Source of the DNA: an uncultured Bacteroidales bacterium
GTDB taxonomy: Bacteria; Bacteroidota; Bacteroidia; Bacteroidales; FEN-979
Direction: 5' to 3'
DNA: 64,000 nt
Assembly (NCBI GenBank): GCA_903824935.1
Contig: CAIJYT010000078.1
Span: forward strand, 1 to 64,000
Positions 1,033-64,000 of this stretch are shown in pieces; position 1 is the first letter of the stretch, and every line of letters starts with the position of its first letter. Made by a program: the position numbers and the translations under genes. A model generated the notes under the pieces. The model was not told the origin of the DNA. It saw only the letters and a list, made by a program, of their open reading frames with translations, and did not search any database.

Positions 1033-1036
1033 TGAT

Positions 1037-15996: not shown

Positions 15997-15997
15997 A

Positions 15998-25579: not shown

Positions 25580-25672
25580 TTCCGTTTATGACTTTCAATG
25601 TATTTATGATATAAGTAACCCAGTTTGCCGAAAATGGAAAACAGAGTAGGCATTTACTAAAATCTTAAAAAA

Positions 25673-37027: not shown

Positions 37028-37037
37028 AACTGAATGT

Positions 37038-38733: not shown

Positions 38734-39441
38734 TTAAGTCAAACAGCTCATTGGTGCGATGAGCAACCGGCTCATCAATTCATCAAGATCTTTTTCTGAC
38801 GGGAAGGCTACAGACAATACCCCGCCCGGGATAGCAACAGAAAGAGCCGTGAACATCCTTAGGTGTTTAAACCGGCACCGGCGGATCAGGCGAGGCTCTT
38901 CAGAAACAGTCTCTATATGATCTGTTTCATACCATTCATGCGGAACCCTGAATCCCAGCCTTATTGCCTTTCCCGCGGCTTCTTTCGCAGTCCAGAGGAC
39001 GTGAAACAACTCAAGCTCATCCTTTTCTTTTCTGCACATCTCCTTCTCCCAATCGCTGAGTACTATGGGTATGATTGTGCGGTTTTTCTCCGTGATGCTT
39101 TCCACATCAACTCCCATCATGAAGGTCAAAGGAAAACACAATCCGGCATTCAGAAAATTACCATGAGCTATTGAGACTCCATACGGCTGCTGAAGGTTGC
39201 TGATATGGGGTTCGCCCAGGCTGCCAGTTGTGATGTGTATTTCAGCAGAAGGAATATCAGGGAATACTTTTTCAATGGCCATTTTTCCTGCTATCCTTCC
39301 GTGAAAGAATGATCTTCTGCGGATATCCGATCCAAAAGCACCCGCGGTTTTTATCTCTTCAGGGTGTAGCATCTGACGAACTTTTTCCCTGAGTTCTTCG
39401 TCGTTGAATGTTGGAAACATTACGAGGCCGGCTGATATCAT
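38734..39441 (-). CDS. Sfp-type 4'-phosphopantetheinyl transferase.
   Basis: Carries GVDVESI and WTAKEAAGKAIRLG (W/FxxKEAxxK). Its ATG at 39441 overlaps the NRPS TGA stop by 4 nt (ATGA). Confidence 0.75.
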   Translation of the reverse strand: MISAGLVMFPTFNDEELREKVRQMLHPEEIKTAGAFGSDIRRRSFFHGRIAGKMAIEKVFPDIPSAEIHITTGSLGEPHISNLQQPYGVSIAHGNFLNAGLCFPLTFMMGVDVESITEKNRTIIPIVLSDWEKEMCRKEKDELELFHVLWTAKEAAGKAIRLGFRVPHEWYETDHIETVSEEPRLIRRCRFKHLRMFTALSVAIPGGVLSVAFPSEKDLDELMSRLLIAPMSCLT

Positions 39442-42400
39442 AATCCCGTATCCCCCCATTTCATCAATGCACGCACCAGTTCCTTCACAAAGGGGCGGGC
39501 AATGACCGAAACATGATTCCCGGGAATATTAACAACCGACAGATCATGCTGGATCCATAGCCCCCAATCCAGATCTGAAGACCTTTCCGGAACCATGGCC
39601 TGCCCGTCAAACGGAGGCAATGCATCCTGGGCCCTGATCAGCAGGGTTTTCCCTTCAAAAGAGCCCGGCCGGCAGGCCGCCGTGATCTCATTATGATAGA
39701 TCATCAGATCGAGATATCCGTGAAAATCGCTGATCTTCATGTCGGGCGGTACAAGGTTGGCCCATATAAACGCTTTAAGAAATACCTCTGACTGGGCTAC
39801 CGGTTCTTTCCCTCTCAGATCTGCGGCGCTTATCCCAAGCGGGCGGCCCACCAGATAGGCTACCTTGCCTGCAAAAGCAAGCATCCGGTCAATAGGATCG
39901 ATGGTAATGGCTGTATATTCAGGTTCCGCTTTAACCGGTGCCATCTGATCAATGATCATCAGCCGGGGGTTTACTCCCGAGGATTCCCCGACCTGTCTTG
40001 CCATCTCAAATGCAATGAGCGCTCCCATAGACCATCCTGCAAATACTACATCATCGATGCAGGTTGGCAGATTGATCTCTTCAAGATAAAAACGGGCCAT
40101 ATCGCTTACGCTGTCAACTTTTTTACCCGACAGTCCCGACGCCTGCAATCCGTAAATCGAATAATCCATTCCCAGCTCCCGGGCCAGCTCATAGTAACAG
40201 AGCACATTGCCGCCGGCCGGATGAACCAGGTACAACTGCTTTTTCCCGTTACCCGGCCTGATCGGGACCAGGGAGGAGGGCTTCTGCTTTAAGCCTGATT
40301 CCCTGAGAAGCTCAGCCAAAGCCATCACGCTCCCCCTTTCGAACAAGGTAGCCAGTGGAAGATGAACATGAAACTCCTTCTCGATTGAAGCAAAAAGCTG
40401 TATTGCAAGAAGGGAATGACCGCCCAGATCGAAAAACCCATCGCCTATACCCAACTCCTGAAGCTTCAGTACTTCTCTGAAAATATTGACCAGCCTGAGC
40501 TCGGTAAGATCACGGGGCGGTGCCAATGAACGGGAAGTTTCATCCCGGGTCCCGGTCATCCGCCTTAATTCCTTAAAATCGGTTTTTCCGTTGGATGTGA
40601 GTGGAAAAAGCTCAATCACATAAAAAACCGAGGGGATCATATATGATGGTAAACGATGTGAAAGCCATTGCCTGAGTTCGTTCTCATCATAAACAAAGCC
40701 CTGTTTCAGACTGATGGCCGCCTGCACTGAACTCACCGAAGAAACGTGTTCAGGAACGAGTACCACAGCCTGTTCAACCGCTATAAATTCATTCAGTACA
40801 TTCTCAATCTCACGGGTTTCTACCCGGTAGCCCCTGATCTTGATCTGATGATCGCTGCGGCCAAGGAAGACAACTGATCCGTCATCCTGCATCCTTCCCA
40901 GATCACCCGTACGGTAAATACGCTCCCCTTTCAGGAAAGGATCGTCAGCAAACTTTTCACTGCTTAGCTGAGGCTGGTTCAGATATCCACGGGAAATATT
41001 ATGTCCACTCAATATGATTTCTCCGGGAATACCTTTCGGGAGGAGCTGAAGATCTTCGCCGGTGATATAAACTGCCGTATTATCGAGCGGAAACCCGATT
41101 GGAAAAATGAGCTGTTCCGGAGCAGGATTAACAGGGATCTCCCAGGTAAGCGAGCCGATAGTGGCTTCAGTGGGACCATAATGGTTAAGGATTCTGAGCA
41201 AAGGAGCGAGGTTTCTGAGCTGTTTGACAATTTCCGCACTGCATTTTTCACCCCCGAGCATCAGCAGTTTATGCGGTAAAAGACTGGCAGCCCGTGATGA
41301 ATGGAGCAGACTCATCATGTGAGAAGGCACGATCTTAAGGCAATCAACCGGCTGGCGATGGAACCAATCGGCCAACAGAGATGCATCGGTCGAATGATCT
41401 TCAGGAATTATCACGACCTCGCCGCCATGGATCAGGGGAGGGAATATCATTGTGTTGCCGAGGTCGGCGGCAATGGATGAAATAGTGGCAAAGGAATCAC
41501 CGGCTTCCATCTTCATCCTCTCCCACACTGCTTTTGAGTAATTAAGCAGCTGGCCGGATCCGATACAAACTCCCTTGGGATTTCCCGTTGTTCCCGAGGT
41601 ATAGATCACATACGACAGTTGATCGCCACCAGGAAGGTCAGGTAAAGTAAGAGTCTCAGAAACCTCATCTCCGGCGATCAGCTTACTGTAAAGAAGGACA
41701 GGAATGCCTGTCCCGGCAAGCCTTTTAGACAACTCCTCTGTGCTGATGGTCCGCTTCAGTGAAGCATCTTGTGCAATAAACTTAAGCCTTTCTTCAGGAA
41801 TACCGCTATCCAGGGGAACATAAGCTCCGCCTGCTTTTAAGATTCCCAGGATAGAAATAATGAGGGATGCCTCGCGGGGAAGAAGTATACCAACCAGATC
41901 TCCCTTTCTTATCCCCTCTTTGGCGAGAGTATTTGCAAGCTGACCGGAAACCATGTCAAGCTCCCGGTAAGTGATCTGCTGGTGGATATCGCGTATGGCT
42001 TTTAAATCGGGTGTTGCCCTGGCCTGTGCCCTGAATTCATCAAGCCAGGAAGCAGGCGAATTCACTCCTGGTTCAGTGTAAACTGAAGGCTTTCCTCTGC
42101 AGAGCGATCGCTGGTCAGCCGGGAACCAGGCCAGCCTGCCGCATGATTCATCGGGATGGCTTATGATGGAGGTCATCAGAATCTTGTAGTTGATCAGCAT
42201 CTTCTGAATCGTCTGACGAAGGAATATCTCGCGTGGATAAGTCACCGAGAGGATCAGCCCCTGGTTCGCCTCCTCAACCCAGAAATTCAGGTCAAACTTG
42301 GAATAGGAATAATCAATGCTCTCGGGTTTCACTACAAGGCCTTTGACGCTGTATAGAGAAGGGATGTTCTGATGTACAAAGTGAACCTGGAAAACAGGGT

Positions 42401-43577
42401 TGGTACTCAGGTTACGGTCGGGTTTTACCTCCTCGATGAGCTTTTCAAAAGGAAGTTCCTGCCTCATAAAAGCCTGCTGGGAATAGGTTTTTATATGATT
42501 CAGAAAGTTTATTGCCGTAAGGTTTTCATCAGTTTTCACCCGCATCGGAAGAGTATTGATAAAAAGCCCCATGGTATTCTGGAACGAAAGCTGATTTCTT
42601 CTTGCAACCGGAACGCCAATCATGATATCCTTTTGACCGCTGTACTTTGACATTAGCAAACCGAAAACTCCGAAAAGCAGATGAAACAGGGTAATATTTT
42701 CGCGCTGGCAGAATTGCCGGAGTTTTTCGGTTTCCGCAGCGTCTATGGCATTAACTTCTTTGCTCCCGTGGTGCGACATTACAGCAGGCCTTTGAAAGTC
42801 TAGCGGCAGGCGCAGGGGTTCAGGCAGTCCGGCTAACTGGGTTTTCCAGAAATCAAGCTGTTCTTTGTAAACGGGAGTGAGCATCCAGTCCTTTTCCCAT
42901 TTCACAAAATCAATATACTGGTATTCCGGGCCGGCGAATGGCATAGGTTCTTTGCTTTCAAGAGCCGCGTAGGTCATCGAAAGTTCTTTTGCAAACAGCG
43001 CATTCGACCATCCATCTGAGATGATATGATGGGGATTGATCAGAAGAATGTATTCCAGATCGTCCAGGTGAAGCACATCGAAACGAAGTAACGGAAGCTG
43101 GCCGAGGGGGATTACGGTTTTCCCGTGTTCGAGAGCCAGGGTCATGGCCTTAGTTTCTTTTTCGTTCAATGGCAGAGTACGGAGATCCCGGTAAATTATC
43201 TCAGGTTTACCGCATGCATGAACATGTTGCACCGGATTTCCGTTCATCACATCGAAGGTAGTTCGAAGGATCTCATGCCGTTCGGTGAGGAGTCCGAGGC
43301 TCTGAGCAAGGATATCGATATTCAGGGGAAACACTGCCGACATCCTGAGGGCGACCGGATTGTTATATATGGCTTCTCCCTCGGTGAGGTTATGAAGGAA
43401 CCACATCCTTTCCTGCGCTTTTGACAAAGGATAGATTCCCCCGGGGTTCCGTTCCATTTTAGGAGGTCTCCCAATCCTCGGGGCTGAATCATCCCTTCCC
43501 TTTCGGAGCAGTGCTTTCAGCTGATCGGGACTTAATCCCGACAGGCGTTCATTCAGTGATTTTTCCTGCTTCGCCAT
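39438..43577 (-). CDS. NRPS termination module: C-A-T-TE (the track ORF extends to 43682; ATG 43577 is the likely start).
   Basis: C domain has LSKAQERMWFL and HHIISDGWS (HHxxxDG). A domain has YTSGTTGNPKG and NYGPTE. T domain has FFDLGGHSLLAIQL. TE domain has GWSMGALIAFEMA (GxSxG). Confidence 0.9.
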   Translation of the reverse strand: MAKQEKSLNERLSGLSPDQLKALLRKGRDDSAPRIGRPPKMERNPGGIYPLSKAQERMWFLHNLTEGEAIYNNPVALRMSAVFPLNIDILAQSLGLLTERHEILRTTFDVMNGNPVQHVHACGKPEIIYRDLRTLPLNEKETKAMTLALEHGKTVIPLGQLPLLRFDVLHLDDLEYILLINPHHIISDGWSNALFAKELSMTYAALESKEPMPFAGPEYQYIDFVKWEKDWMLTPVYKEQLDFWKTQLAGLPEPLRLPLDFQRPAVMSHHGSKEVNAIDAAETEKLRQFCQRENITLFHLLFGVFGLLMSKYSGQKDIMIGVPVARRNQLSFQNTMGLFINTLPMRVKTDENLTAINFLNHIKTYSQQAFMRQELPFEKLIEEVKPDRNLSTNPVFQVHFVHQNIPSLYSVKGLVVKPESIDYSYSKFDLNFWVEEANQGLILSVTYPREIFLRQTIQKMLINYKILMTSIISHPDESCGRLAWFPADQRSLCRGKPSVYTEPGVNSPASWLDEFRAQARATPDLKAIRDIHQQITYRELDMVSGQLANTLAKEGIRKGDLVGILLPREASLIISILGILKAGGAYVPLDSGIPEERLKFIAQDASLKRTISTEELSKRLAGTGIPVLLYSKLIAGDEVSETLTLPDLPGGDQLSYVIYTSGTTGNPKGVCIGSGQLLNYSKAVWERMKMEAGDSFATISSIAADLGNTMIFPPLIHGGEVVIIPEDHSTDASLLADWFHRQPVDCLKIVPSHMMSLLHSSRAASLLPHKLLMLGGEKCSAEIVKQLRNLAPLLRILNHYGPTEATIGSLTWEIPVNPAPEQLIFPIGFPLDNTAVYITGEDLQLLPKGIPGEIILSGHNISRGYLNQPQLSSEKFADDPFLKGERIYRTGDLGRMQDDGSVVFLGRSDHQIKIRGYRVETREIENVLNEFIAVEQAVVLVPEHVSSVSSVQAAISLKQGFVYDENELRQWLSHRLPSYMIPSVFYVIELFPLTSNGKTDFKELRRMTGTRDETSRSLAPPRDLTELRLVNIFREVLKLQELGIGDGFFDLGGHSLLAIQLFASIEKEFHVHLPLATLFERGSVMALAELLRESGLKQKPSSLVPIRPGNGKKQLYLVHPAGGNVLCYYELARELGMDYSIYGLQASGLSGKKVDSVSDMARFYLEEINLPTCIDDVVFAGWSMGALIAFEMARQVGESSGVNPRLMIIDQMAPVKAEPEYTAITIDPIDRMLAFAGKVAYLVGRPLGISAADLRGKEPVAQSEVFLKAFIWANLVPPDMKISDFHGYLDLMIYHNEITAACRPGSFEGKTLLIRAQDALPPFDGQAMVPERSSDLDWGLWIQHDLSVVNIPGNHVSVIARPFVKELVRALMKWGDTGL

Positions 43578-43588
43578 GGCCTGTTGGA

Positions 43589-44734
43589 TCAGGGGTAAGT
43601 AAGGACCAGCTTCCCAATATGTTTTGAGCGCGACATGGCAGTGAGAGCTTCTTTTAGCTGTCGGACAGGGTAGGTCACGCAAGGAATCGGTTTAAAAAGC
43701 CCGGAATTGAAAAGCCCGGCGATTTCCGTGAGCTGTTCTTTCAGCCTGCGCGGCTGTACCAGGTACAACGAAATATCGAGTACCGAAAAAGTGATCCCTT
43801 TGCTGAATATGCCCATCGGCAGAAGGGTGTTCTTCGCGATATCCTTTTTATCGATCTGAATAAACCGGCCAAAGGGTGCAAGTATCTCCAATCCTTTCAT
43901 CATGCCATCTCCCGAAAGAGTATTCAAAACGACATCGACTCCCCTGCCCCTGGTCAGTTTCATGATTTCTTCGCCAAATAAAACGGACCTTGAATCCATC
44001 GGATGAACGATTCCTCTTTTTATAAGGAATTCCCTCTTCTCTGGTGATCCTGCCGTTGCATATATCCCTGCCTTCCTCCATTCTGCAATTTCCAGAGCGG
44101 CAAGGCCCACTCCGCCGGTAGCTGTATGGATCAGTACCGATTCGCCTTCAGCAATATTTGCCAGACGTATCAGGCCTGAGAATGCCGTGAGGAAAACCGT
44201 GGGGACCGCGGCTGCTTCTTCAAAGCTCAGTCCATGAGGTTTTGGTACAACCTGCAGTTGTGAAAGGTTGAAAACATTGATGAAATGGCTCCCAGGCTGC
44301 ACTTTCCCGTCGATGAAAGTGCCCGCCGACAAGGCAATTACCTCATCTCCTTCTTTGATCCCACTCACTCCGGGGCCCACACGGGTAACTACCCCGGCAT
44401 AATCGGAACCCATATTGGAAGGGACCCCGGGAGCCTCTGGGTATTGTCCCATGGCAATCATCAGGTCGCGGTAGTTCAGGCTTGCTGCAAGGGCTTTCAC
44501 CTGTACATAGCCTTCGGGAGGATCAGCGGCCTTTGCTTCCCTGAAGCTGATATTCAATGAACCGGGATTACCGGGATCGCAGGAAAAACAATCCGGCAGT
44601 TGTAACTCTTCCTTTTCCGGTTTATTCTGATTCCCGGCGCCCTTCGCAGAAGCATAGCCAAGACGTTTCAACAGCATCTCCTTCTGCTCAGGCGACAAAC
44701 CTGCAATTTTTTTCAGAAGTTCATCATTGTTCAT
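43589..44734 (-). CDS. Discrete (trans-acting) PKS-type enoyl reductase, MDR superfamily.
   Basis: Motifs VKALAASLNYRDLMIAMGQYP (PKS-ER LNFRD-type) and HTATGGVGLAALEIA (NADPH-binding), plus an N-terminal ~60-aa extension. Confidence 0.75.
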   Translation of the reverse strand: MNNDELLKKIAGLSPEQKEMLLKRLGYASAKGAGNQNKPEKEELQLPDCFSCDPGNPGSLNISFREAKAADPPEGYVQVKALAASLNYRDLMIAMGQYPEAPGVPSNMGSDYAGVVTRVGPGVSGIKEGDEVIALSAGTFIDGKVQPGSHFINVFNLSQLQVVPKPHGLSFEEAAAVPTVFLTAFSGLIRLANIAEGESVLIHTATGGVGLAALEIAEWRKAGIYATAGSPEKREFLIKRGIVHPMDSRSVLFGEEIMKLTRGRGVDVVLNTLSGDGMMKGLEILAPFGRFIQIDKKDIAKNTLLPMGIFSKGITFSVLDISLYLVQPRRLKEQLTEIAGLFNSGLFKPIPCVTYPVRQLKEALTAMSRSKHIGKLVLTYP

Positions 44735-47700
44735 CTTCCATCTCTTTCAGCAATGCTTCAATTTCATCGGATCCTTTCGCGGCAATGATCATTTCGACGA
44801 TCCTGTCGGATAATCCTTTCACGGTCGGATTTTCGAAAAATACGTTCGGCTGGAGTTCAAGGTCAAACTCATCCGCAATATTAGATATTGTTTGTATTGC
44901 CAGCAGCGAATTTCCCCCGAGTTCCATAAAGGTATCATTCACTCCTATCTTGTCAATGCCCAGAATTCCTTTCCAGATTTCGGCCACTGCAATTTCGATC
45001 TCGGTCGATGGAGCCTCAAAAACAGTAGATAACTGCGGCCGCTCATAAGTAGATGCATTTCCTTTCTTCTCTTCTTCCTTTTCCAGTTTTTCCTTTTTTT
45101 TGTATGAAGGTCTTTCCTCAAGGATGTCCTGGTTCAGGTCGGTTGTGTTGACTATGATCTGGGGGAACTGCTTATAATTGAGAAGGCGTTTAAACACTTC
45201 AATGCCCTCATCGGGGAGTATGTCATTTTTTCCGGCTAAGGAGATGGTTTCCTGGACAGGTTTCGGCGCTGCATCTTTTGACATCGAACTTTTATATCCG
45301 CCGAGATTCTGTTGCAGCCGGCGGAATGAAACCTGATCGATGCTTACAAGCAGGCGGTTTTCCAAATCCAGAAGCTTTACTTCAAATTTCAATTCTTCAT
45401 CCCCCGGTTTCCATTCATCACTGATTCTGAGATAGCACCAAAAACAGGCTGGAAGAGGATTATGCACCCGAATATTTTTATATGAATACGGGAGATACAG
45501 ATTCATGTCGACATATTGTATACAGCTTGATGTGGCTACATCAAGCATGGCCGGATGAAGAGTGAAATAGTTCAGGTCATCAAGAAACTCATCCCTTAAT
45601 TTGATTTCAATGAGGAATTCCTTGCCGTTGTATTGGGCCGACTTCTTGCAATCCCAACGGTTACTGTATTTTAAAACGGACCTGTTTTCTTCATTCATCA
45701 ATTCCAGGAAATGAGGTATGTGGTCGGTCTTTCCTCCGATTTGTTTTGAAAGCACCTCAATGTTGATACTTGCGGAAGGCAATTCTGCGACTATCCTGAA
45801 TTCCCCTTTAACATGATCCATCCATATCTCCCGGGCAGATTCGCCTTTTAATTCCTTACTGCTTATGCGGAATGCCCATGCATCGCCCGAAGGCTTGACC
45901 ATTAAACGCAGATTCCTGCGGATCCCTTCGTCATAAATAAGTGGAGTGACGAATGAAAAGTTCAGGACTTCAAGATGACCAGCCGGATTTTTGATTTTGG
46001 CATAGAGGTTGAGGATCTCCAGGGTGGAAATCCCCAGAAATGCAGGCTTCCCCGACAGGAGGTGAGAGCTTAACACCCAGTCGCGTTCGGGATCAAGGTC
46101 GAGCTGATAAATATCCTGATCCTGATCTGATGACTGAAATACCAGCCTTATGCCGTTCCTGGTTTCTGTTTGTTTTAATGCCTTGCCCGATTGTAACAGC
46201 TGTTTTTTCTCGGCTTTGGTTTTCTCCCAGCTGGCGGCCATGCCAACGATTCCCCATTGGGCCCAGTTAACTGAAAGCGTGCCATCGCCGGTTAACCCTT
46301 TGCGGTACTGTGCAAAAGAATCCATAAAGGCGTTGGAACCACAATAGTCAATCCTGGCTGCTTCTCCGAAAATCGAAGAAACAGAAGAAAACAGGAAGAA
46401 GAAATCGAGCTTCCTGTCTTTGAAAATATCATGCAGAATGAGCGTTCCGTTTAATTTGGAGTTCAGCACGAGCTCGGCTTGTTCTTTATCTTTAAGTGCG
46501 ATGACGCCACCTCCGGGCATGCCGGCCGAATGCAGCACCCCGCAGAATGGTCCGGATTCCTTCTCAATATCAGTTACGAGCTTCCTGGTTCCTTCATAAT
46601 CGGAAGCATCCAATTGGGCAAGAATCACCTTTGAGCCCAGTGATTCCAGCTCCGCAAGATCCCTTACCCGGCTTGCAGCTGAGTCATCAGGTCCTGTAGC
46701 TTCAACAATCGATGCCCATTCGCCGCGGGGTGGCAAGGATGAACGATGAGTGAGTACCAGAGTAGCTTTTACCGTGCGGGCTATAAATTTGGCAAGTTCC
46801 ATCCCGATTCCGCTTACGCCGCCAGTGATCAGGTAAACTCCATGATTGGCCAGGGAGTTCTCTGCAAGCACTCCGTTTTCAGCACATATTGGAGTATAAT
46901 CTTCAACCCAGCGGTAGCCATTACGGTAAGCGGCAATGGTGTCATCAGTTGCCAGGCGGCATTCGTTGATCACAGCAGAACCCAATTCTTTCAATTGTTC
47001 AGAGTCCGAAGCAGAGGGAAGATCAACCAGGCGGGCAATGAATCCGGGATGTTCCTGTCCGATAACGCGTGCAGCACCCACAGCCAGGGCCTTTTCAGGG
47101 GAGAGAACCACCTGGCCGGTAACATCATACAGATGATTTATTACAAAAAGTAAAAATTGGTTTTTCACAAATCCTTCACTGATGAGGGCTTGCTCAAGGT
47201 ATAAAGGTCCGTAGAAATTATCTGTGGCAAGTTGCCCGGCATGAAGCGGGTGAAGATGTCCCGAATGAGGTTTCTGGGAGTAATTCCAGGCATAGATAAT
47301 ATTATTGGGCTTACGGTCTTCTGATTTAATCGTATTTATTAACCGGGAAAAATGCTCCTTGCACGTGGGATCAATACTATAATTGTCTTTCTCGTGAATG
47401 AATTCATTTCCTTTTTTTACGTTCAGGCAGGGAATGCCTGTTTCATTCAGTTTGCTGCGAATCGCCTCGCAAAGGCCCTCCTCATCTTCAAACAGAAGCC
47501 AGCATGCTTTTTCGGAACTTTCTTCAGCTGAAGCCATGCCGTTAATCGGAATAAGTTGCGGAGGGGCCGATCTTTTCCATCCGGGAATATAAAACCATTG
47601 ATTGATATCGGGTTTCTTTTTGTTTTCCGGTTTGGCTTTGTCGGCGTTATTATGCGAAAAGTCGATCTTATAGGGTTTTCGTTCAAAGGGATAACCCGGG

Positions 47701-50306: not shown

Positions 50307-50319
50307 AAGTTGTAGTTTT

Positions 50320-55410: not shown

Positions 55411-55448
55411 GGATGATTACCTCAATAGGGTAAAGTAAAAGTCCTGTC

Positions 55449-56978
55449 TTATTTAATATTAAATACCCAGGGATTGTAGTTTACGAGCTGATCGGACGAT
55501 GTCGGGAAGTCGCCAATAAGGTATTTCAGGGTGATTATCCTGGTCATGATGCCCAGGCGGCCTGCTTCCACATTCTTAAGAGCTGTATTATAGTCCATAT
55601 ACGTATTAATCATGTTGATCTGTGTGGAAGCTCCCATTTTAAATTTTCGAACTTCACTCTGGAATGTTTTTTTCTCAATTTCAGCAAGCCTGATCTGATT
55701 TTTAAATAAGGGTAAGAGATTACCAAGATCGCTCAAGAGTTTAGTTACTTGCATTTTGGAATCAAATCTCACTTGTTCAAGCTGGGTTTTATTAAATTCG
55801 TAAGATGACAGTTTTGAAAGGTAGTCTCCTTTCCGCTCTTCATTTTTAAAAGGTAAATTATATAACAAGGTAAGATTCACGGAAGAGCCCGGTGATCCGC
55901 TTTTTATGGTTTGGGTAAATTCAGAAACAGGCAGGCCATTGGTCATACCAAAATACATATAGTTAAGATTAAGATTAAATTCATTTAGCTTGTTGTGCTT
56001 GGCCCCGTTCATTGCAATCTGTGAGGAGGAAGTAAGCAATTCCTGGCTTTTGTAATAAGGCGTGTTTACAATCATTGAATCAAGGTTCCTGGAAACATAG
56101 GCTGAATATTTTTCCCAGGGAAAGGATAAAGGATTGGGAAGTGAATCAAGAAAAACCGGGAGGGCGTTTGCCTTGAATGTTCCTTTGGCGCCAATTGAAG
56201 TGACCAGGTCATATAATGAATTGACGATATCATTGCGCGCCAATGAAAATTGCTGGGCAATGCTTAGTTGGTAGGCCTCGGCACGAAAGGTTTCCACTTT
56301 CGCCAATTGTTCATCCAATATCATCGTTTTAATATCGTTAAGGTACTGGCGTGCATCGTTATCAGCATCTTTCAGTATCCTGAAGACCGCAACGGAAGAG
56401 TATGAACTATAGTAGGATGATAATGTGTTTTTAATAAACTGGCAGATCTCATCGGTAAACGAAACATTCTGTGCTTTGTTCATCAGCAGCGTTGAAAGGT
56501 ATGTAACATTCTCGGAGTTATACCGGCCAAGATCGCGTAAAAGCGGAATTGAAATTCCTGCCCATATCCCCGATTCATTTACTGCCAAAAATTGAGTCTC
56601 AAAAACTCCCGGAACTCCCATCTGAATCTGCTGTTCCGTGAAAAGCCTCACTCCCGAATAAAACTTTATCCCCAAACGGGTTGGAATTGAGACTTGTCCG
56701 GTAAAAGTATATGAATCAATGAAGGACCAGGTTGGATCAGTACCATATAACCCGTTAAAGTTGAATGAGAGAACCGGATTAAAAAAGCCTTTGGTGCTGA
56801 TTAACTGACCGAAGCTTTCACCCACAACATGTCTTTTTAATTTGATGTTGAAATTTGCGTCAAGGCCGATTTGTAATACTTTAAAGGTTGACAGTGAATC
56901 ATAATTAATTATCGGCTGGCTTTTTACAACAAGTGTTCCTGCTGCAAGAAGGATGATGATCAGAATTTTCTTTTTCAT
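55449..56978 (-). CDS. TolC-family outer-membrane efflux channel.
   Basis: 509 aa with a signal peptide MKKKILIIILLAAGTLVVKS and a two-repeat OEP-like organisation. The stop is only 38 nt upstream of the NRPS start. Confidence 0.65.
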   Translation of the reverse strand: MKKKILIIILLAAGTLVVKSQPIINYDSLSTFKVLQIGLDANFNIKLKRHVVGESFGQLISTKGFFNPVLSFNFNGLYGTDPTWSFIDSYTFTGQVSIPTRLGIKFYSGVRLFTEQQIQMGVPGVFETQFLAVNESGIWAGISIPLLRDLGRYNSENVTYLSTLLMNKAQNVSFTDEICQFIKNTLSSYYSSYSSVAVFRILKDADNDARQYLNDIKTMILDEQLAKVETFRAEAYQLSIAQQFSLARNDIVNSLYDLVTSIGAKGTFKANALPVFLDSLPNPLSFPWEKYSAYVSRNLDSMIVNTPYYKSQELLTSSSQIAMNGAKHNKLNEFNLNLNYMYFGMTNGLPVSEFTQTIKSGSPGSSVNLTLLYNLPFKNEERKGDYLSKLSSYEFNKTQLEQVRFDSKMQVTKLLSDLGNLLPLFKNQIRLAEIEKKTFQSEVRKFKMGASTQINMINTYMDYNTALKNVEAGRLGIMTRIITLKYLIGDFPTSSDQLVNYNPWVFNIK

Positions 56979-57000
56979 TTATTAATCCTGTTAAACGATT

Positions 57001-59925
57001 TCATGCCAGCTGACGTTTTGTGAGTTCAGCAAAAAAACCATTTTTTTCAACAAGTTCTTTATAGCTTCCCTCTTCGATAAGCTGACCCTTGTCAAGAACA
57101 AAGATACGGTCGGCATTCATGATGGTACTAAGGCGGTGTGCTATAACAATGCGTGTCGCATTCAGCTTTTCGATACTTGCGCTTACGATCCCCTGGGTTT
57201 CATTGTCAAGAGCGCTGGTAGCCTCGTCGAATATGAAAATCCTGGGGTTGCGGATCAATGCCCTGGCAATGACGATTCGCTGTTGCTGGCCCCCCGATAA
57301 AGTATCGCCGCCCGGTGGCAGGATAGTATACATTTTGTTGGGGAGATTCATGATTTCATCAGCGCATCCAGCCATCCTGGCAGCTTTCCAGGCATCCTCT
57401 TCAGTGTACAACGATGAACCGGTGATATTGTAAAGTACGGTTCCCTGCATGATCCTGGAGTTTTGTAAAACTACCCCCAGCTGATCTCTGATCCCACGGA
57501 CATCGAGGTCTTTAAGTTCTTTATTATCGAAAAGAATGCTTCCAACGTTATATTTTTCAAATCCCAGCAACAATCTTACCAGTGTTGATTTTCCCGAACC
57601 TGAGCTGCCGGTGATTGCTACAAACTGTCCCGGACGAATAGACATGTTAAGTTCTTTCAGGCTCCAGTCAGGAGTGTCGGGGTATTTAAAACTCAGCTGG
57701 GTGATTTCGATACCGCCGCTAAGTTCACCAGGATCGGGTTTCTCGAGAAGGTCTTCCGTATCGGCCTCCAATATTGGTTGAAACAGCTGATAGGTGGGCT
57801 TGATATTAAGTAAGGGGACTGTTACCATGAAGGTTTGAATCATTGCACCCTGAAAGCTGAGATAAGCGCTGTTGAATGCTACAAAATCACCGATACCGAA
57901 CCCGGGCAATCCCGATTTAAAAATTGAATACACCCTGATAAAGATCAGCATGGAAGCGAGAACCGGAAAAGTAGCAGAAAAGATACTTGCAATCATAAGA
58001 AGAGTACGTTTCTGCCGGTAATGGTCCTTTTGCTGCGCATATCGGTCGGCCCATAGTGAAAAGACCTTTTCTTTACTCCCGGTAACCCTGATTTTGTTAA
58101 TTCCACGGATAGCCATCAGCAGGAAGCCCGAGATCATGGCATCCATGCGGCGCATGAATACCACATGTTTATATGCAAGAAGGCTTATAGTGAGTGTAAA
58201 TGCGGCGACAACGAGGCCCAGAAAAAGCGCAAGCAGGGCAAGTTTCAGGTCGTAATAGAAAAGCAGGGCAAGATAAAAGACAGAGAAGATTCCTGAAATC
58301 ATGGCGCCCAGGACCGTGGTGGACAGGGTGTCACGAATCCGTTCAATCCCCATACTTCGTTCAGCAAGGTTCCCAGGTGTGTAATTTCTGAAGAAATCGA
58401 CCTGAAGGGAGAGTATCCTGTCCCATAATGCTGATTGGAGTTTGAACCCTGCTTTCCCGGCCATACGGAGAACGGCGATGGATTTGGCAAAGTTCAGCAG
58501 CCCGATGGTTATCACGCAAATAACCATAATAGCTCCAATCTGCCAGAGTTCTTTAGTATCTCCGCCAGGGATGACAGTATTGAACACATAGCCGCCAACA
58601 ACCGGTATTACCAAAGCAAGTAAAGCGCCGATCACGCCGATCACTAAAAAACTCAGGATATCACGGTAGGTGAACTGAAGAGCAAAACTGATGAGATCCT
58701 TGCCCTGAAGTTTGCCTTTTGGGAAAGGAGTGAAGAAACTATACGCCCTGGGTTCGAGGAGTTGTTGGACAGATTCGTCAACCAATTCTTTTTTACGATT
58801 TTTCAGATCAATCATCCAGTACTGAGTGCTGCCTTTGGCAATGAGGCCTACAGGGGTATTGCCGGCTTTTAGAAAACCAAGCATGGAGCCGGCATTATTG
58901 GTCCACCAGTGCGGTTCAAGCATTACACTCCTTGATCGGATGTTTGAAGCTCTGAGGATGTTCCAGAGGGAATCATGTTTACCGCTGATTCGGTTCCCGG
59001 GGTTAATGAATTCGATTTTCTCTCCCTTCCCGATCAGCTGACAGGTTTGGAGTAAAAGCATATTAGGAGTCGCCGGAATTGTTGGAATTCCTCCCTGGTT
59101 TTTATCATCAAAGAGATCATCAGTTACCTTGCCGGAAATGATAGACTTAAAGCGGTTCAATGCGCTTATCACTGCATTGGCTCTAAAGGCATATGAATCA
59201 TCCACATGAGTAAGTGACACTTTCTGCTCATCAGAATACAGATTCTGAAGAACGGTTATGATCAGTTCAGTAAACCCGAAAAACTGAGACAGGTAGAGAT
59301 CATTGGTAACGACCTGCTTTGTAGTATAAATGGTTTTTTGAACAGTAGCCCCAAAAGACATCCATAGATTTGAAGTAAGGGGAAGAAGTGTCAGTCCATT
59401 GGCAAGGGGATCGGCAAAGTTGTAATACATTGGCTTCAGTCCTGCCGATTCAACCCATAAAACTTCCTCCGGACCTGATGCACCGTAGCTTTTCACTGGA
59501 TCTGCTGAAAAAACAGGTGCTGCTTTGATCCCGTTTAAAAGGGGCATGGTCCCAAAGTGGTTCATTCCGTCAGAAACTCTGAGTAACCATTTATCAAAAA
59601 GAAAGGTGGCATAATCAGGATTTGCCGACACCAATCTGTTCAATGAACCTGAATCGAGAACTCCGATTGTACAATTTGTCAAGGCACAAATTATAATAGA
59701 CAGGGCGTCGCTTTCTTTGAAGCCGGGAATCAGAAACGGTGCGTTGATGCGGAAAAGGAACAATCGCCGGCCAGGTCCCGTGGGCAGTTTTTCAACATAA
59801 AAAATGTCAGCATCGCCAGCTTCAAGGTAAAAAGCTGCAGGAGAGGCACTATTCAGAGTAAGCACTTTATTGCTGGGCAACTGCTCGGTACGAGTATAAA
59901 AAGAAGAAATCACCTGCTGCTCCAT
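57001..59925 (-). CDS. ABC exporter (TMD + NBD) with a ~410-aa N-terminal cytoplasmic extension.
   Basis: Walker A GSSGSGKST, signature LSGGQQQRIVIARAL, Walker B IFIFDEATSALD. Six predicted TM helices begin around aa 420. The long N-terminal domain resembles the regulatory extensions of peptide-exporter ABC partners. Confidence 0.75.
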   Translation of the reverse strand: MEQQVISSFYTRTEQLPSNKVLTLNSASPAAFYLEAGDADIFYVEKLPTGPGRRLFLFRINAPFLIPGFKESDALSIIICALTNCTIGVLDSGSLNRLVSANPDYATFLFDKWLLRVSDGMNHFGTMPLLNGIKAAPVFSADPVKSYGASGPEEVLWVESAGLKPMYYNFADPLANGLTLLPLTSNLWMSFGATVQKTIYTTKQVVTNDLYLSQFFGFTELIITVLQNLYSDEQKVSLTHVDDSYAFRANAVISALNRFKSIISGKVTDDLFDDKNQGGIPTIPATPNMLLLQTCQLIGKGEKIEFINPGNRISGKHDSLWNILRASNIRSRSVMLEPHWWTNNAGSMLGFLKAGNTPVGLIAKGSTQYWMIDLKNRKKELVDESVQQLLEPRAYSFFTPFPKGKLQGKDLISFALQFTYRDILSFLVIGVIGALLALVIPVVGGYVFNTVIPGGDTKELWQIGAIMVICVITIGLLNFAKSIAVLRMAGKAGFKLQSALWDRILSLQVDFFRNYTPGNLAERSMGIERIRDTLSTTVLGAMISGIFSVFYLALLFYYDLKLALLALFLGLVVAAFTLTISLLAYKHVVFMRRMDAMISGFLLMAIRGINKIRVTGSKEKVFSLWADRYAQQKDHYRQKRTLLMIASIFSATFPVLASMLIFIRVYSIFKSGLPGFGIGDFVAFNSAYLSFQGAMIQTFMVTVPLLNIKPTYQLFQPILEADTEDLLEKPDPGELSGGIEITQLSFKYPDTPDWSLKELNMSIRPGQFVAITGSSGSGKSTLVRLLLGFEKYNVGSILFDNKELKDLDVRGIRDQLGVVLQNSRIMQGTVLYNITGSSLYTEEDAWKAARMAGCADEIMNLPNKMYTILPPGGDTLSGGQQQRIVIARALIRNPRIFIFDEATSALDNETQGIVSASIEKLNATRIVIAHRLSTIMNADRIFVLDKGQLIEEGSYKELVEKNGFFAELTKRQLA

Positions 59926-59926
59926 A

Positions 59927-62098
59927 TCAGTTGAGTTTTACCAAATTATAATAAAGTCCCTGCTCATCGCTGATCATCTCATCGTGTGTACCCCGTTGAA
60001 CGACTTTTCCTTTATCCAAAACAATGATTTCATCGCAATCACGGATCGTACTGAGCCGGTGGGCAATAATGAGTGTAGTACATCCCCTGCGGCGAATATT
60101 GTTGTCGATGACCTTTTCGGTGTTGGCATCTAATGCGCTGGTTGCTTCATCCATCACAAGGATAGTCGGGTTTACGACTAATGCACGTGCAATTTCTATG
60201 CGCTGACGCTGGCCTCCGCTAAGGTTGTTTCCTGCGTTGAGGAGAATGCCGGTATATCCGCCGGGCCTCGATGAGATGACGTCATGAATACATGCATCCC
60301 TGGTCGATTGGATAATATCGGGAGTTCCGATCGTATTATTCCACATCGTAATATTGTCGTTTACGGTTCCCTTGAAAAGGAATATTTCCTGGTCTACCAG
60401 AGAGACAGAGTTCCTGATGACATCCTCTGGAAATGAATTCCGTTCATGTCCATCGAAAAGGATTTCACCGGCCCAGGGATGGTATAGGCCAGCAACCAAT
60501 TTGGCCAGAGTCGATTTCCCTGAGCCTGAACCTCCAACGAGGGCAATACGTTTGCCAGGTTCAACATGAAGTGAAAAATTTTCAATCAGAGGCTCGCTAA
60601 AGCGGTCATATCCAAAAGTAACATTCTTAAAATCGAGGAATCCGTGTAATTTGGAATTGGAAGGTATTAAGGATCCGGGGTTGTCGTTAGCCTCATTTTT
60701 AAAATAAACATCTTCATTGGTCGATAATGCGTCCTGAATCGTGTCGATATTACTCTTTGCTCCCTGGAGGTCACTGCCCATCGAAACTACCGCCTTAACA
60801 GGGCCTGTAAAATTTGACATCAGGCTCTGGAAGGCGATAAAGACACCTATTGTCATCTCCCCGTAGATAACAAGCAGTCCGCCTAAAGTCAGCAGAATAA
60901 TGGTATTCAGGTTTGACAGAAAATCGGGTAAGGCGGCCAGCAGGTTAGAAGTCACATTCAGCTTTTGATCAAAGACCACTGCATTGGAAAGATTTCCCGA
61001 CCAGAGGCCATAAAAATCGTTTTCGGAGCCCGTGGCTTTAATGGTTTCAATTTGTTCAAGCCCGACTCCTGCAGTGCTGAAGGTACGTTGATTTCGCTCA
61101 AATAGCAACTGGTTGAGGGTGGATCTTTTTTCAGAAATTATCCGAAGAAATAACAGGTTAACAAGTATTACGGTAACGCCGATTACTGTAAGAAGTAAAT
61201 TATACTGGATCATAACGATCGCGTAAAACAAAACCGTAATGATACTTGAGACCGTCATTGTAAGTTCCGTTGAAAGCAGCGTGGCAAGATCATCATTGAG
61301 CTGAACGCGTTTGAAGATCTCTCCGGGTTGACGCGTCATAAAGAAGCGGATAGGCAGTTTCAATATATGCATCAGCAGTTTCGAAGACTCAACGATGGCA
61401 AGGCGTAATTCAATCTTGACAAGAATTTTTTGCTGCAAAAAAGTAAGTACTCCGTTAAAAAGGAAAAGTCCCGCGATGAGAACAATCATGGGCTTAAAGT
61501 AAGGCTGTTGTAAGCCAATAATATCGTCAAAAAAAAGTTTATTCAAGCCTGCCATAATGATAGCAGGAATGATCAGTATAGTACCACATATCATCACGAA
61601 TACAAGGTCAAACCGGCTTGGTTTTATTCGTGTCCATACCTTGTTGTAAAAACCATTCTGCTTTTTATCAGGTTTGAACGCGGGTCCGGGAGTAATAATC
61701 AAAACCGTTTTGTTATAGATTTTTTCCAGCTCCTGCCTACTGAGGATCTTGTTTCCTTCATGAGTATCGTTCAACAGGAAACCGTCGCTGGTATAACCGG
61801 TTAAAACGCTGAAATTTCCGCCTTGAACTCCAATGATCGCGGGAAGCTGAAGCGATTTCAGTTCAGCCACGGAACAATTTACAACTTCCGACTTAAATCC
61901 ATGGCTGATGGCGACCTTCATCAAACGGCTGGCTGGAATTATTGAATTATCCGAAATTCCACATTCCTGGTTCAGAGCATCCTTTGCCGGGTAACAATGG
62001 TAATAAGAAAAAACCATTGTGAGTGCGATCGCACCGGATTCATTTTCGCCAATCTGGAGAATTACCGGAACCTTTTTTTTAATATGCTCATCTCTCAT
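59927..62098 (-). CDS. ABC exporter with an N-terminal C39-like domain whose catalytic residues are substituted (Cys->Ser, His->Asn).
   Basis: N-terminus LQIGENESGAIALTMVFSYY (versus canonical Q....DCGxACL) and GVQGGNFSVL (versus NHFVV). Walker A GGSGSGKST, LSGGQRQRIEIARAL, ILVMDEATSALD. Begins 1 nt after the upstream ABC gene. Confidence 0.8.
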   Translation of the reverse strand: MRDEHIKKKVPVILQIGENESGAIALTMVFSYYHCYPAKDALNQECGISDNSIIPASRLMKVAISHGFKSEVVNCSVAELKSLQLPAIIGVQGGNFSVLTGYTSDGFLLNDTHEGNKILSRQELEKIYNKTVLIITPGPAFKPDKKQNGFYNKVWTRIKPSRFDLVFVMICGTILIIPAIIMAGLNKLFFDDIIGLQQPYFKPMIVLIAGLFLFNGVLTFLQQKILVKIELRLAIVESSKLLMHILKLPIRFFMTRQPGEIFKRVQLNDDLATLLSTELTMTVSSIITVLFYAIVMIQYNLLLTVIGVTVILVNLLFLRIISEKRSTLNQLLFERNQRTFSTAGVGLEQIETIKATGSENDFYGLWSGNLSNAVVFDQKLNVTSNLLAALPDFLSNLNTIILLTLGGLLVIYGEMTIGVFIAFQSLMSNFTGPVKAVVSMGSDLQGAKSNIDTIQDALSTNEDVYFKNEANDNPGSLIPSNSKLHGFLDFKNVTFGYDRFSEPLIENFSLHVEPGKRIALVGGSGSGKSTLAKLVAGLYHPWAGEILFDGHERNSFPEDVIRNSVSLVDQEIFLFKGTVNDNITMWNNTIGTPDIIQSTRDACIHDVISSRPGGYTGILLNAGNNLSGGQRQRIEIARALVVNPTILVMDEATSALDANTEKVIDNNIRRRGCTTLIIAHRLSTIRDCDEIIVLDKGKVVQRGTHDEMISDEQGLYYNLVKLN

Positions 62099-62127
62099 AA
62101 CTAGGCTCGATTGATTGGTATGGAGTA

Positions 62128-63378
62128 CTACTCGAAAAATGATTTAAAGATCGGAATGATATAGTCAATAGGTGCTTTTTCCCTTACCCGTATGGAGGCC
62201 CTGCAAAGTGTACCGGTATTGATGGCGTATGGCGGTCCCGTTTTATTCGACCATTCATATCCGCTTTTTGTGCTAGGATCGGGGATAAGAGCGATTTTAA
62301 CACGGTAAGTCGGGCCCTGTTTTTCGATCAGCTCAACGAGATCAGGGTTCCCTAATTCATCAAGGATCGAGCTTGTATTGGAAACAAAATGATTAACCTC
62401 CACTACCTCACCCATCAACCATCCATAAAGATTTTCATTCACGGTAAAAGGTTTTACCATAACCCTCATACCTGGTCCAACAACCGCGTTTGAATTAAAC
62501 GGGATAAAAAGGTCGAGCAAATGATTTCGGGAATTTTCCAGATCTTCAACCACCATCATGCGGGTACCGGCATTTACATAATCGCCGCTGGTCACTGATT
62601 TATCAATGATCATGCCATCAACAGGGCTGTTGATGATGGTCTGTCTGTTATACTCATCCTGGAGATCATTAATTTTTTTCTTGAGAATCTGGATCTGGCC
62701 ACTGTAATCTTCCTGCTTGAATTGCCTGTCATAGTTCCAGGATTGCTGATCCAGCTGATTGGTTTTTACCTGTTGTTCGAGTTGGGTACGCTGATTATGG
62801 GCATCAGACAAATCATTTTTTGCATTAACGAAGTTCTCCCTGGTGGCAAGTCCTTTATCCCAGAGATCCTGTTGTTGCTGCATCTTCAGCTCAAAAAAAT
62901 TAATCAGATCCTGAACATGCAACAATTCTCTTTTCAGGCGTTCTTCCTCCAGACTATAAAATCTCATTTTACTAGGATAATCTCGTGTGTCCCTGGTCAG
63001 GAGCAAAGAATCCTGAAATCCCAGCACATCGAGTTCTGCATACAGTTCAACCAACTGATGCCTGAGCTGTGGTTGAACAAGTTTAATCAGAACATCTCCC
63101 GCATTGACTTTCTCACCTAGTTCATACCTGACTTCTTCAACCCCCCCGGGATAGAGGGCAATAATTCCGTTAAGGCCTTTCTTGCTGATTATTTCACCTA
63201 AACCGTCAATTTCTTGTGGAATGCTTCCGAATATTCCCCAGATAATTGTGATTATGGTAAGAAGCCCTAAAGCAGAAAGAGAGATCCAATACCTAGGGCG
63301 GGTAATTTTCAACATTTGGTTTATTTCCTCAGGGTTGCCTGCTGCTCCTGTAGGTTGCGATTTTTCTGCCTTGTCCAT
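62128..63378 (-). CDS. HlyD-family membrane-fusion/adaptor protein for the paired ABC exporters (the track start is TTG 63402; the first ATG is at 63378).
   Basis: N-terminal TM helix (ISLSALGLLTIITIIWGIF), a long coiled coil (QQQDLWDKGLATRENFVNAKNDLSDAHNQRTQLEQQ) and a C-terminal beta-barrel/lipoyl-like region. Confidence 0.75.
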   Translation of the reverse strand: MDKAEKSQPTGAAGNPEEINQMLKITRPRYWISLSALGLLTIITIIWGIFGSIPQEIDGLGEIISKKGLNGIIALYPGGVEEVRYELGEKVNAGDVLIKLVQPQLRHQLVELYAELDVLGFQDSLLLTRDTRDYPSKMRFYSLEEERLKRELLHVQDLINFFELKMQQQQDLWDKGLATRENFVNAKNDLSDAHNQRTQLEQQVKTNQLDQQSWNYDRQFKQEDYSGQIQILKKKINDLQDEYNRQTIINSPVDGMIIDKSVTSGDYVNAGTRMMVVEDLENSRNHLLDLFIPFNSNAVVGPGMRVMVKPFTVNENLYGWLMGEVVEVNHFVSNTSSILDELGNPDLVELIEKQGPTYRVKIALIPDPSTKSGYEWSNKTGPPYAINTGTLCRASIRVREKAPIDYIIPIFKSFFE

Positions 63379-63423
63379 AATAAAATATATTGCTGGTAAC
63401 AAAAAACCTGCAAAGGCGGGTTG

Positions 63424-63460
63424 TTGAACACAACCCGCCGTGAACTATTAATCTCTCCCT
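63424..63460 (-). terminator. Terminator-like GC hairpin (ggcgggttgt / acaacccgcc, 10-bp stem) followed on the minus strand by TTTGCAGGTTTTTTG. It lies between the upstream ORF and the hlyD-like gene.
   Basis: Plus strand: aaaaaacctgcaaaggcgggttgttgaacacaacccgccg. On the minus strand this gives stem-loop + TTTGCAGGTTTTTT. It could be an attenuator or terminator separating a small upstream transcript from the exporter operon. Confidence 0.35.
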
Positions 63461-63533: not shown

Positions 63534-63989
63534 CTACTTCTCGTGTTTATGAAAAGCCATTCCTTTCTTTATAATACTCTTCTTCCATTCCCCATTTTCG
63601 TCCAGATGGGATGTTTCGTGGTGCTTCTTGACGATGGCTGCTATCTTATCGGGCATTTTTGTTGCTTTTCCAGGGATGCCGCCTGATGCTGGTCCTTTTG
63701 GTAGAGAAGGGCTAGAACTCTTTTTTTGATTTTCCATAATTGTTGAGTTTTGATTTGTAGGAATAAATTGGGATTGTACTACTTCTTGTGAAGAATTGTG
63801 TTTATTAAGTTGGATCTTTTTGATGATTAAAATAATTCCATAAACGAACATGAATGTCGTTGCATAGCTCCATATCTGTGTTATTAAGCTGATTTTATTG
63901 AAACCTTCCACACCATAAAGATGAATCAGCGTGATCCTTAAAAAAATATCAGAAAAGTCACGAAACGCCAGAAACATAGTCAGAAACAT
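63534..63989 (-). CDS. Hypothetical protein in an AT-rich segment. Either a membrane protein that continues beyond the window edge, or a 67-aa peptide starting at the internal Met (~63734).
   Basis: The ORF track gives 151 aa with hydrophobic N-terminal segments and a Lys/His-rich C-terminal tail (MENQKKSSSPSLPKGPASGGIPGKATK...KKHHETSHLDENGEWKK...HKHEK). There is no in-frame stop before the window edge at 64000. Local GC is visibly lower than the neighbouring genes. Confidence 0.3.
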   Translation of the reverse strand: MFLTMFLAFRDFSDIFLRITLIHLYGVEGFNKISLITQIWSYATTFMFVYGIILIIKKIQLNKHNSSQEVVQSQFIPTNQNSTIMENQKKSSSPSLPKGPASGGIPGKATKMPDKIAAIVKKHHETSHLDENGEWKKSIIKKGMAFHKHEK

Positions 63990-64000
63990 GAAATATTTAA

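Follow-up and report, generated by a model that had tools for sequence, protein, structure and literature searches.

Several described systems each resemble a part of the locus considered here. In the colibactin pathway, ClbB joins condensation, adenylation and thiolation domains (C-A-T) to a KS-AT-KR-DH-ER-T module (ketosynthase, acyltransferase, ketoreductase, dehydratase, enoylreductase, thiolation) and makes 4-aminopentanoate from alanine and malonyl-CoA (PMC5490422). The zeamine (zmn) cluster places exporter genes ahead of its polyketide synthase (PKS) and non-ribosomal peptide synthetase (NRPS) genes (PMC3547906). Among export systems, the family trio TIGR03794/03796/03797 was defined by Haft et al. 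(2010) by its co-occurrence with nitrile-hydratase-leader and Nif11 precursors of ribosomally synthesised peptides that carry post-translational modifications (RiPPs) (PMC2887384). In known HlyB-type systems, the ATP-binding cassette (ABC) transporter's C39-like domain (CLD) binds uncleaved cargo (PMC8277102). Here we describe a gene cluster from an uncultured Bacteroidales bacterium (GenBank assembly GCA_903824935.1, contig CAIJYT010000078.1, positions 1 to 64,000; this whole stretch of 64,000 nucleotides is hereafter the window). A two-ABC exporter with a HlyD-family adaptor and a putative outer-membrane protein (OMP) is encoded there directly ahead of a hybrid NRPS-PKS assembly line.

The region is probably a single co-inherited and co-transcribed biosynthesis-and-secretion cluster of uncultured freshwater, Bacteroidales-like Bacteroidota. 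Nine co-directional genes on the minus strand span positions 38734–63378 (open reading frame (ORF) listing with Pfam and NCBIfam scans) and fully occupy the block from 38.7 to 63.4 kb. In the direction of reading they are:

62128–63378, minus strand: HlyD-family adaptor, 416 residues from an ATG start, in agreement with the public gene call.
59927–62098, minus strand: ABC1, an ABC transporter with an N-terminal C39-like domain (Pfam Peptidase_C39).
57001–59925, minus strand: ABC2, an ABC transporter of 974 residues.
55449–56978, minus strand: OEP/TolC-like OMP, a weak call.
50320–55410, minus strand: NRPS1, A-T-C-A-T (Pfam and NCBIfam).
44724–50306, minus strand: PKS, KS-AT-KR-DH-ACP, where ACP is the acyl carrier protein domain (Pfam).
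43589–44734, minus strand: free-standing enoylreductase (ER) of the medium-chain dehydrogenase/reductase (MDR) and PKS type.
39438–43577, minus strand: NRPS2, C-A-T-TE, where TE is the thioesterase domain (Pfam).
38734–39441, minus strand: phosphopantetheinyl transferase (PPTase) of the Sfp/EntD type, 235 residues (Pfam ACPS, 43.9 bits; 100% identical to public call P0091).

From hlyD to the PPTase gene, successive junctions measure +29, +1, +22, +38, +13, −11, +11 and −4 nt. An earlier note on this DNA had listed the nine genes, their domain orders and junctions of −11 to +38 nt, all of which are borne out by the ORF listing, the family scans and the measured junctions. Its hlyD end at 63402 is the exception: that position corresponds to an upstream TTG, and the ATG start of the public gene call gives 63378. 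A sigma-70-type consensus scan, which does not model Bacteroidetes promoters, found promoter- and terminator-like sites between 44 and 64 kb no more often than in shuffled sequence. The same scan found none in the 38-nt gap between the OMP and NRPS1 genes, where, according to the earlier note, a terminator or promoter would have divided the operon.

Relatives of the cluster were recovered with NRPS1 as the query, yielding two loci from metagenome-assembled genomes (MAGs) in a genome scan and 15 loci in a metagenome scan. Synteny was read by tblastn of all window proteins against these loci, which are numbered here with the prefix L. The order VC0807-family membrane protein, small protein, HlyD, ABC1, ABC2, OMP, NRPS1, PKS, ER and NRPS2 is intact in the 10 loci with long flanks, whose NRPS1 proteins are 56–86% identical to that of the window, and shorter contigs keep it in part. 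The PPTase gene lies directly after NRPS2 and closes the unit in all four further contexts inspected; it is the last gene common to all lineages, and beyond the unit the genes at both ends vary between lineages. The whole arrangement recurs in about 13 distinct lake-metagenome lineages, which argues that it is not a product of chance. Even in a relative that is 34% identical (L025), the OMP gene adjoins the NRPS gene. The exporter is co-inherited with the assembly line in every lineage seen, in line with the earlier note's view that the two are tied together. Since two extra genes always stand ahead of hlyD, the conserved unit comprises at least 11 genes as read from these alignments. The relatives are assigned to Bacteroidetes and Bacteroidales MAGs from Lac Pavin and the Kiruna lakes, and the window shares 18.3 kb of identical sequence with a JGI lake-metagenome contig.

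The biosynthetic part of the unit is built from the following domains:

NRPS1, minus strand: A1 53896–55365, T 53641–53847, C 52225–53520, A2 50716–52158, T 50437–50631.
PKS, minus strand: KS 49137–50273, AT 47838–48716, KR 46254–47600, DH 45309–46136, ACP 44799–44987.
NRPS2, minus strand: C 42120–43439, A3 40584–42035, T 40305–40496, TE 39441–40238.

Four PP-binding carrier domains are distributed across the three proteins (Pfam). The first adenylation domain, A1, is of the amino-acid type: it is matched by TIGR01733 in two stretches, and its nearest relatives in the PDB are NRPS A domains such as that of LgrA. Its Asp235 is replaced by Ala, and the starter should therefore be something other than an alpha-amino acid. 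The code of A1, AATYYSLANK, does not vary among 12 orthologues and is largely retained in the 34% relative, and its Tyr/Tyr/Ser/Asn pocket suggests a small polar acid. A fatty-acid starter loaded by a fatty acyl-AMP ligase (FAAL) was considered and rejected, as TIGR01733 and the PDB relatives place A1 among amino-acid-type domains, from which it differs by the missing Asp235. The A2 code, DILQIGLVYK, lies near the glycine code, and the A3 code, DLTK[MIV]GH[IV]GK in nine of ten orthologues, is presumably Asp-like, with the L024 version identical to the aspartate code; both assignments come from comparison with Stachelhaus codes. The NRPS2 A domain of L013 deviates (DLTKVASISK), and because of this different third code the last residue of its product may differ.

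The catalytic residues of the PKS are well preserved. The AT carries GHSxG and the malonyl-type HAFH motif, and these, together with the KS Cys-His-His, KR Ser/Tyr/Asn, DH His and Asp and ACP Ser (GGNS), are conserved in 11 orthologues. The KR also carries GGxGxxG, the ER a conserved NADPH motif (GGVG) and the TE a GWSMG motif. KS-AT didomains (8xju, CurL and DEBS) are the nearest PDB matches of the KS-AT; the best of them, 8xju/8xjy, may be a colibactin PKS. An iterative PKS of the polyunsaturated fatty acid (PUFA) or enediyne kind, an idea raised by the placement of KR before DH, seems less likely: the KS-AT falls among those of modular and hybrid systems, and the same domain order is found in other hybrid NRPS-PKS loci and is also written for ClbB. 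Residues 56–381 of the free-standing reductase align with the ER domains of MAS, SpnB, CurK, CurF and JamJ, by which it is a genuine PKS-type ER. Its 55-residue N-terminal extension and the N-terminus of NRPS2 share a GLSPxQ...LLK/R motif, and the PKS ends in a conserved acidic helix; together these features suggest that the ER is recruited by docking. The order of building blocks proposed in the earlier note (a starter acid, a first amino acid, a fully reduced C2 unit, a second amino acid and release by the TE) agrees with the absence of Asp235 from A1, the A-domain codes, the HAFH motif, the KR, DH and ER motifs, and the ClbB precedent. As the logic is that of the ClbB gamma-amino-acid segment, an acyl-(4-aminobutyryl)-Asp product would be expected.

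The exporter belongs to families that export peptides and proteins. The adaptor matches TIGR03794 (256.8 bits against a cut-off of 156.2) as well as Pfam HlyD_3 and HlyD_D23, and ABC2 matches TIGR03797 (774.6 bits against 709.4) from residue 291 onward. ABC1 reaches 812.8 bits with TIGR03796, below the cut-off of 853.3, though model positions 1–710 of 710 are aligned. Judged by these matches, the pump is a HlyD plus two-ABC trio of the nitrile-hydratase leader peptide (NHLP) or ‘bacteriocin’ kind (RiPP-type), heterodimeric and of the peptidase-containing ABC transporter (PCAT) type. ABC1 consists of the CLD (61679–62098), a transmembrane domain (TMD) and a nucleotide-binding domain (NBD). Residue-level alignment of the CLD with LahT150 (6mpz) and ComA places Ser at the catalytic Cys and Asn at the catalytic His. 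The protease dyad is lost in all 13 ABC1 orthologues (Cys to Ser, His to Tyr or Asn) and the domain is retained in each, so that the CLD label given to ABC1 in the earlier note holds. Across these orthologues the CLD has a mean pairwise identity of 72%, and the ABC1 TMD and NBD are 90–92% identical; the transmembrane and ATPase domains of the pump, at 88–94%, are the most conserved parts of the cluster. A C39 domain without its catalytic residues would be a binding module only.

ABC2 carries an N-terminal extension of about 290 residues (59056–59925) ahead of its transmembrane and nucleotide-binding domains. The extension has no Pfam match. Compared by hhalign with the CRP cyclic-nucleotide-binding domain (E 0.0076, probability 5%), it gives a weak hint of a fold like a degenerate nucleotide-binding domain. 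A single-sequence AlphaFold2 (AF2) model of it was unusable (pLDDT 35). About 56 residues within the extension are deleted in L014, L016, L018 and L027. The OMP has a signal-peptide-like N-terminus and matches Pfam OEP across just half of its length (27.6 bits, cut-off 22), and so appears, weakly, to be a remote TolC/OEP relative.

Ahead of hlyD lie three further conserved features:

63738–64000, minus strand: 3′ part of a gene for a VC0807-family inner-membrane protein, which runs past the end of the window and is the first conserved gene of the unit.
63534–63737, minus strand: Lys-rich small protein of 67 residues, from a new, cluster-specific family (alignments).
63400–63439, minus strand: conserved GC-rich hairpin (63415–63439) and, after it, a T-rich run; together they separate the small-protein gene from hlyD.

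A full-length orthologue of the first protein (L007:1072–1722, 216 residues) scores 81.1 bits with NCBIfam NF041646 (VC0807_fam) against a cut-off of 65. The gene is found in every locus that extends that far upstream of hlyD; L027 begins within the small-protein gene. The window's VC0807-family ORF continues into the small-protein ORF without a stop (...QNSTI-MENQKK..., 63735–63745, minus strand), whereas all relatives have a stop and 3–70 nt between the two genes.

Members of the small-protein family are 65–171 residues long. Their alignments display a conserved N-terminus, MENQKK..P.PP.GP, a variable linker rich in Pro, Thr, Gly and Met, and an invariant C-terminal pattern, HHxxxHL(D)xNGxxK...G. 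A dN/dS of 0.1–0.5 indicates purifying selection. The protein has no signal peptide and no Pfam or NCBIfam match at E ≤ 1. Its AF2 model is disordered in the N-terminal half and forms a helix-turn-helix at the C-terminus (pLDDT > 90); when this model was used for a fold search, no match at E < 1 emerged. A role as an NHLP/Nif11 precursor was rejected on the lack of any family match and on the GG motif, which is not conserved in the family. The family is rare, with 23 clusters among 5.8 billion proteins and seven representatives among 1.84 billion, and every context inspected places it ahead of the same pump. Its longer members (L019:1510–1929, L024:1483–1911, P0013 and P0023) contain TPGTP and MP(K/G)MP repeats before HHxxxH; as pure speculation, this composition may be likened to Met/His-rich metal-binding segments.

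All 13 aligned loci have the hairpin, three of its nine pairs show compensatory changes, and neither it nor the hlyD leader matches an Rfam family. Followed by its T-run, it looks like a terminator or attenuator. The sequence TAnnTTTG is the consensus of the Bacteroidetes −7 box, and such a box occurs 32–70 nt 5′ of the VC0807-family gene in 7 of 11 loci. The unit is larger than the nine-gene operon that the earlier note began at hlyD: two conserved genes and then a terminator-like hairpin precede hlyD, and the −7 box lies upstream of the first of these genes in loci that extend so far.

We lean, by a small measure, toward one co-inherited cluster in which the product of the assembly line is secreted through the co-encoded envelope-spanning pump. 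The domains of this line are observed directly; the chemistry assigned to them, and the export and transcription steps, are read from sequence. Transcription would start 5′ of the VC0807-family gene, undergo attenuation at the hairpin and read through into the nine genes. The cluster PPTase would prime the four carrier domains, A1-T would load a small carboxylic acid other than an alpha-amino acid and C-A2-T would add glycine. KS-AT-KR-DH-ACP would then add one malonyl unit and, with full reduction by an ER that is probably recruited through the N-terminal motif it has in common with NRPS2, would turn the glycine into a 4-aminobutyryl unit. After addition of aspartate by C-A3-T, the TE would free an acyl-(4-aminobutyryl)-Asp-type product, which the TylF-like methyltransferase and, in this genome, two B12-radical S-adenosylmethionine (SAM) enzymes may tailor. 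Finally, the NHLP/PCAT-type heterodimeric ABC pump, the HlyD adaptor and the outer-membrane factor would move the product or products across both membranes.

Several observations weigh against this model. On the export side, members of these pump families are known to carry peptides and proteins rather than products of ~300–400 Da, and retention of the dead C39 domain points to a ligand that is a peptide or a protein. The call of the OMP is weak, with no NCBIfam match and no PDB sequence match. If the hairpin were a full terminator, the nine genes would need a promoter within the remaining ~35 nt. On the biosynthetic side, the glycine and aspartate assignments come from code comparison, and the KR has no LDD, the motif usual for DH-coupled KRs. 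The NRPS1 C domain has an in-frame loss of 11 residues over its C2 motif (~53340–53400 in the window, NRPS1 residues ~676–690), a deletion common to the window and its 86% relative L017, where the other relatives have KHxxLKTKF. Pfam recognised no docking domain at the N-terminus of the ER or of NRPS2, nor at the C-terminus of the PKS or of NRPS1.

The pump might instead have the small protein as its cargo, which we regard as possible but distinctly less probable. The protein would leave the cell without being cleaved, the dead C39 domain serving as its receptor, following HlyB/RTX logic, and the NRPS-PKS product would be attached to it, bound by it or co-secreted. The earlier note called the exporter ‘dedicated’, a word that presumes a metabolite cargo and sits poorly with a pump from peptide- and protein-exporting families that is directly preceded by a cluster-specific small-protein gene. 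Known CLD-bearing transporters carry unprocessed protein (PMC8277102), and the CLD has been kept in 13 of 13 orthologues, at 72% mean identity, despite loss of the dyad. The gene always lies directly upstream of the pump with the hairpin after it, like a bacteriocin structural gene, and the family is found only with this cluster. Within the protein, the lack of a signal peptide, the variable Pro/Thr-rich linker, as in extracytoplasmic proteins, and the non-conserved GG motif, which fits an absence of cleavage, all point the same way. Binding could come about between an acidic product and a very basic protein, and the outcome would be a ribosomal/non-ribosomal pair. However, the protein has no similarity to NHLP/Nif11 leaders or RTX signals, and nothing encoded in the cluster could couple it to the metabolite: a ligase, a GNAT and an extra C domain are all absent, and the line ends in an ordinary TE. 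A short basic helix-turn-helix protein could equally well be a regulator or chaperone. Rather improbable, in our judgement, is a composite secreted product, with the Lys-, His- and Met/Pro-rich small protein as cargo and an acyl-gamma-aminobutyryl-Asp moiety attached or carried, for example as a metal-binding pair; if true, this secretion logic would be one not described for NRPS-PKS products.

Transport genes of PKS and NRPS clusters are often proposed to serve self-resistance in addition to export, as for zmn6-8 and zmn20/21 in the zeamine cluster (PMC3547906). By analogy, the pump could be a recruited self-protection or general efflux device, with the metabolite leaving by another route or acting in the cell or periplasm. 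We consider this unlikely: an envelope-spanning machine of four components at the head of the operon would be a high price for resistance alone, its TMDs show the strongest conservation in the whole cluster (91–94% identity), and neither the window nor four further contexts hold another exporter within the cluster or next to it. It is highly improbable that two unrelated systems merely adjoin here, one of them a peptide exporter and its small protein, the other an NRPS-PKS line. The hairpin and the differing family origins of a RiPP-type pump and an assembly line would permit separate histories. Against this, about 13 lineages share the same order and spacing, with NRPS1 identity as low as 56%, and the OMP-NRPS pair is still found at 34%; the flanking genes are not conserved, and the gap between OMP and NRPS is just 38 nt with no terminator-like site in the consensus scan.

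Beyond the PPTase gene, the window holds candidate accessory genes:

33972–35045, minus strand: TylF-like methyltransferase (Pfam TylF).
35399–38678, plus strand: two tandem class-B (B12-binding) radical-SAM genes, ~550 residues each (Pfam Radical_SAM).

The methyltransferase is probably a tailoring gene, as an orthologue 79% identical to it lies directly after the PPTase gene on the same strand in L032, and one 95% identical lies nearby in L031. The radical-SAM genes are convergent with the cluster, separate the PPTase gene from the methyltransferase gene, have a low GC content (0.38–0.40) and score under the cut-off with all NCBIfam B12-radical-SAM families. The second is 87% identical to an ORF just 5′ of the VC0807-family gene in L013, on the opposite side of the cluster. 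As this identity exceeds that of the core genes with L013 (64–84%), the pair may move between lineages; it is probably accessory and possibly mobile. Proteins of three other families, a pyridoxal phosphate (PLP) decarboxylase of the Orn/diaminopimelate (DAP)/Arg type, Amidohydro_3 and Methyltransf_2, recur beside the cluster on either side according to lineage (L032:11946–13211; 5′ of the VC0807-family gene in L014, L016 and L018; and L017, L031 and L034), and may be variable tailoring genes.

Elsewhere in the window, 31–6369 and 10429–18409 have a housekeeping character, with mevalonate-pathway genes (HMG-CoA reductase, a diphosphomevalonate decarboxylase-like protein and a UbiA prenyltransferase) and an alpha-2-macroglobulin/PbpC pair. 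At 24833–25579 on the plus strand, 13 kb from the cluster, lies a gene for a stand-alone C39-like cysteine peptidase (Pfam Peptidase_C39_2). On its 3′ side, at 25618–25652 on the plus strand, Rfam places a DUF805b RNA motif (RF02914, 35.9 bits), which lies upstream of an SPFH/Band-7 gene.

The cluster is a compact and well-conserved orphan biosynthetic gene cluster (BGC) of about 27–30 kb, with a predicted product that is small and synthetically accessible. Its producers are abundant, uncultured Bacteroidota of stratified lakes, a group for which, to our knowledge, almost no chemistry is known. If the favoured secretion model holds, a two-ABC exporter of the RiPP/bacteriocin type can be recruited to a non-ribosomal line after loss of its protease, with a bearing on how genome mining matches exporters to their cargo. 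Its testable parts include the free-standing ER with its possible docking motif, the starter A domain with an invariant code and the new small-protein family. Nothing here overturns current understanding.

Every component of the cluster belongs to a known family, and the comparison with described systems is therefore one of combinations. As in colibactin ClbN/ClbB, where an acyl-Asn comes first, an NRPS would pass an aminoacyl chain to a fully reducing PKS module for extension by a single malonyl unit; both lines place KR before DH. Unlike in ClbB, the ER stands on a polypeptide of its own, with an N-terminal extension, and the first amino acid is Gly-like, which predicts a 4-aminobutyryl unit. 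The starter also enters differently, through an A domain without Asp235 and not a lipoinitiation C domain; the line stops one residue later with a TE, and neither a ClbP-type prodrug peptidase nor a MATE exporter is encoded.

The pump shares with the NHLP/Nif11 export trio a HlyD-like adaptor, an ABC protein bearing a peptidase domain and one lacking it, and two of the three models score above cut-off. It departs from that trio in the lost peptidase dyad, the ABC1 score under the TIGR03796 cut-off and the extra ~290 residues of ABC2, and in being followed by a putative outer-membrane factor and an NRPS-PKS line with no RiPP-maturation enzyme alongside. No NHLP/Nif11 precursor lies beside the pump, where the only small gene is unmatched at E ≤ 1 (not all small ORFs elsewhere in the window were scanned), and the upstream flanks of the relatives hold unrelated genes. 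Compared with HlyB/HlyD/TolC type 1 secretion, the cluster likewise combines an ABC protein whose C39 domain is degenerate with a HlyD-family adaptor and a putative outer-membrane factor. It falls outside those subfamilies by score, with 400.1 against 725.6 bits for TIGR01846 and 64.2 against 208.7 bits for TIGR01843; in addition, the pump is heterodimeric, there is no RTX protein, and the catalytic Cys has become Ser rather than Tyr.

Tripartite ABC export linked to PKS and NRPS clusters is also represented by PvdRT-OpmQ and by the MacAB/NodT genes of Pseudomonas lipopeptide clusters. The zmn cluster, like the one described here, contains HlyD-family, ABC and PPTase genes together with its PKS and NRPS genes. 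It thereby offers a described case of the export-first order, which the earlier note called unusual in Bacteroidota-like genomes. The pumps in all these cases are small-molecule pumps of the MacB or ABC-2 type, whereas here the pump is of the PCAT/NHLP peptide type, with a CLD and its own putative outer-membrane factor. The literature held nothing specific on this BGC or on CLD pumps paired with an NRPS, and no characterised relative was found; with no named relatives and no literature, we regard the cluster as undescribed. As far as we could find, four features are new: the pairing of an NHLP/PCAT-type heterodimeric pump, protease-dead across the clade, with an NRPS-PKS line; the cluster-specific small protein; the free-standing ER with a shared N-terminal motif; and the unassigned starter code.

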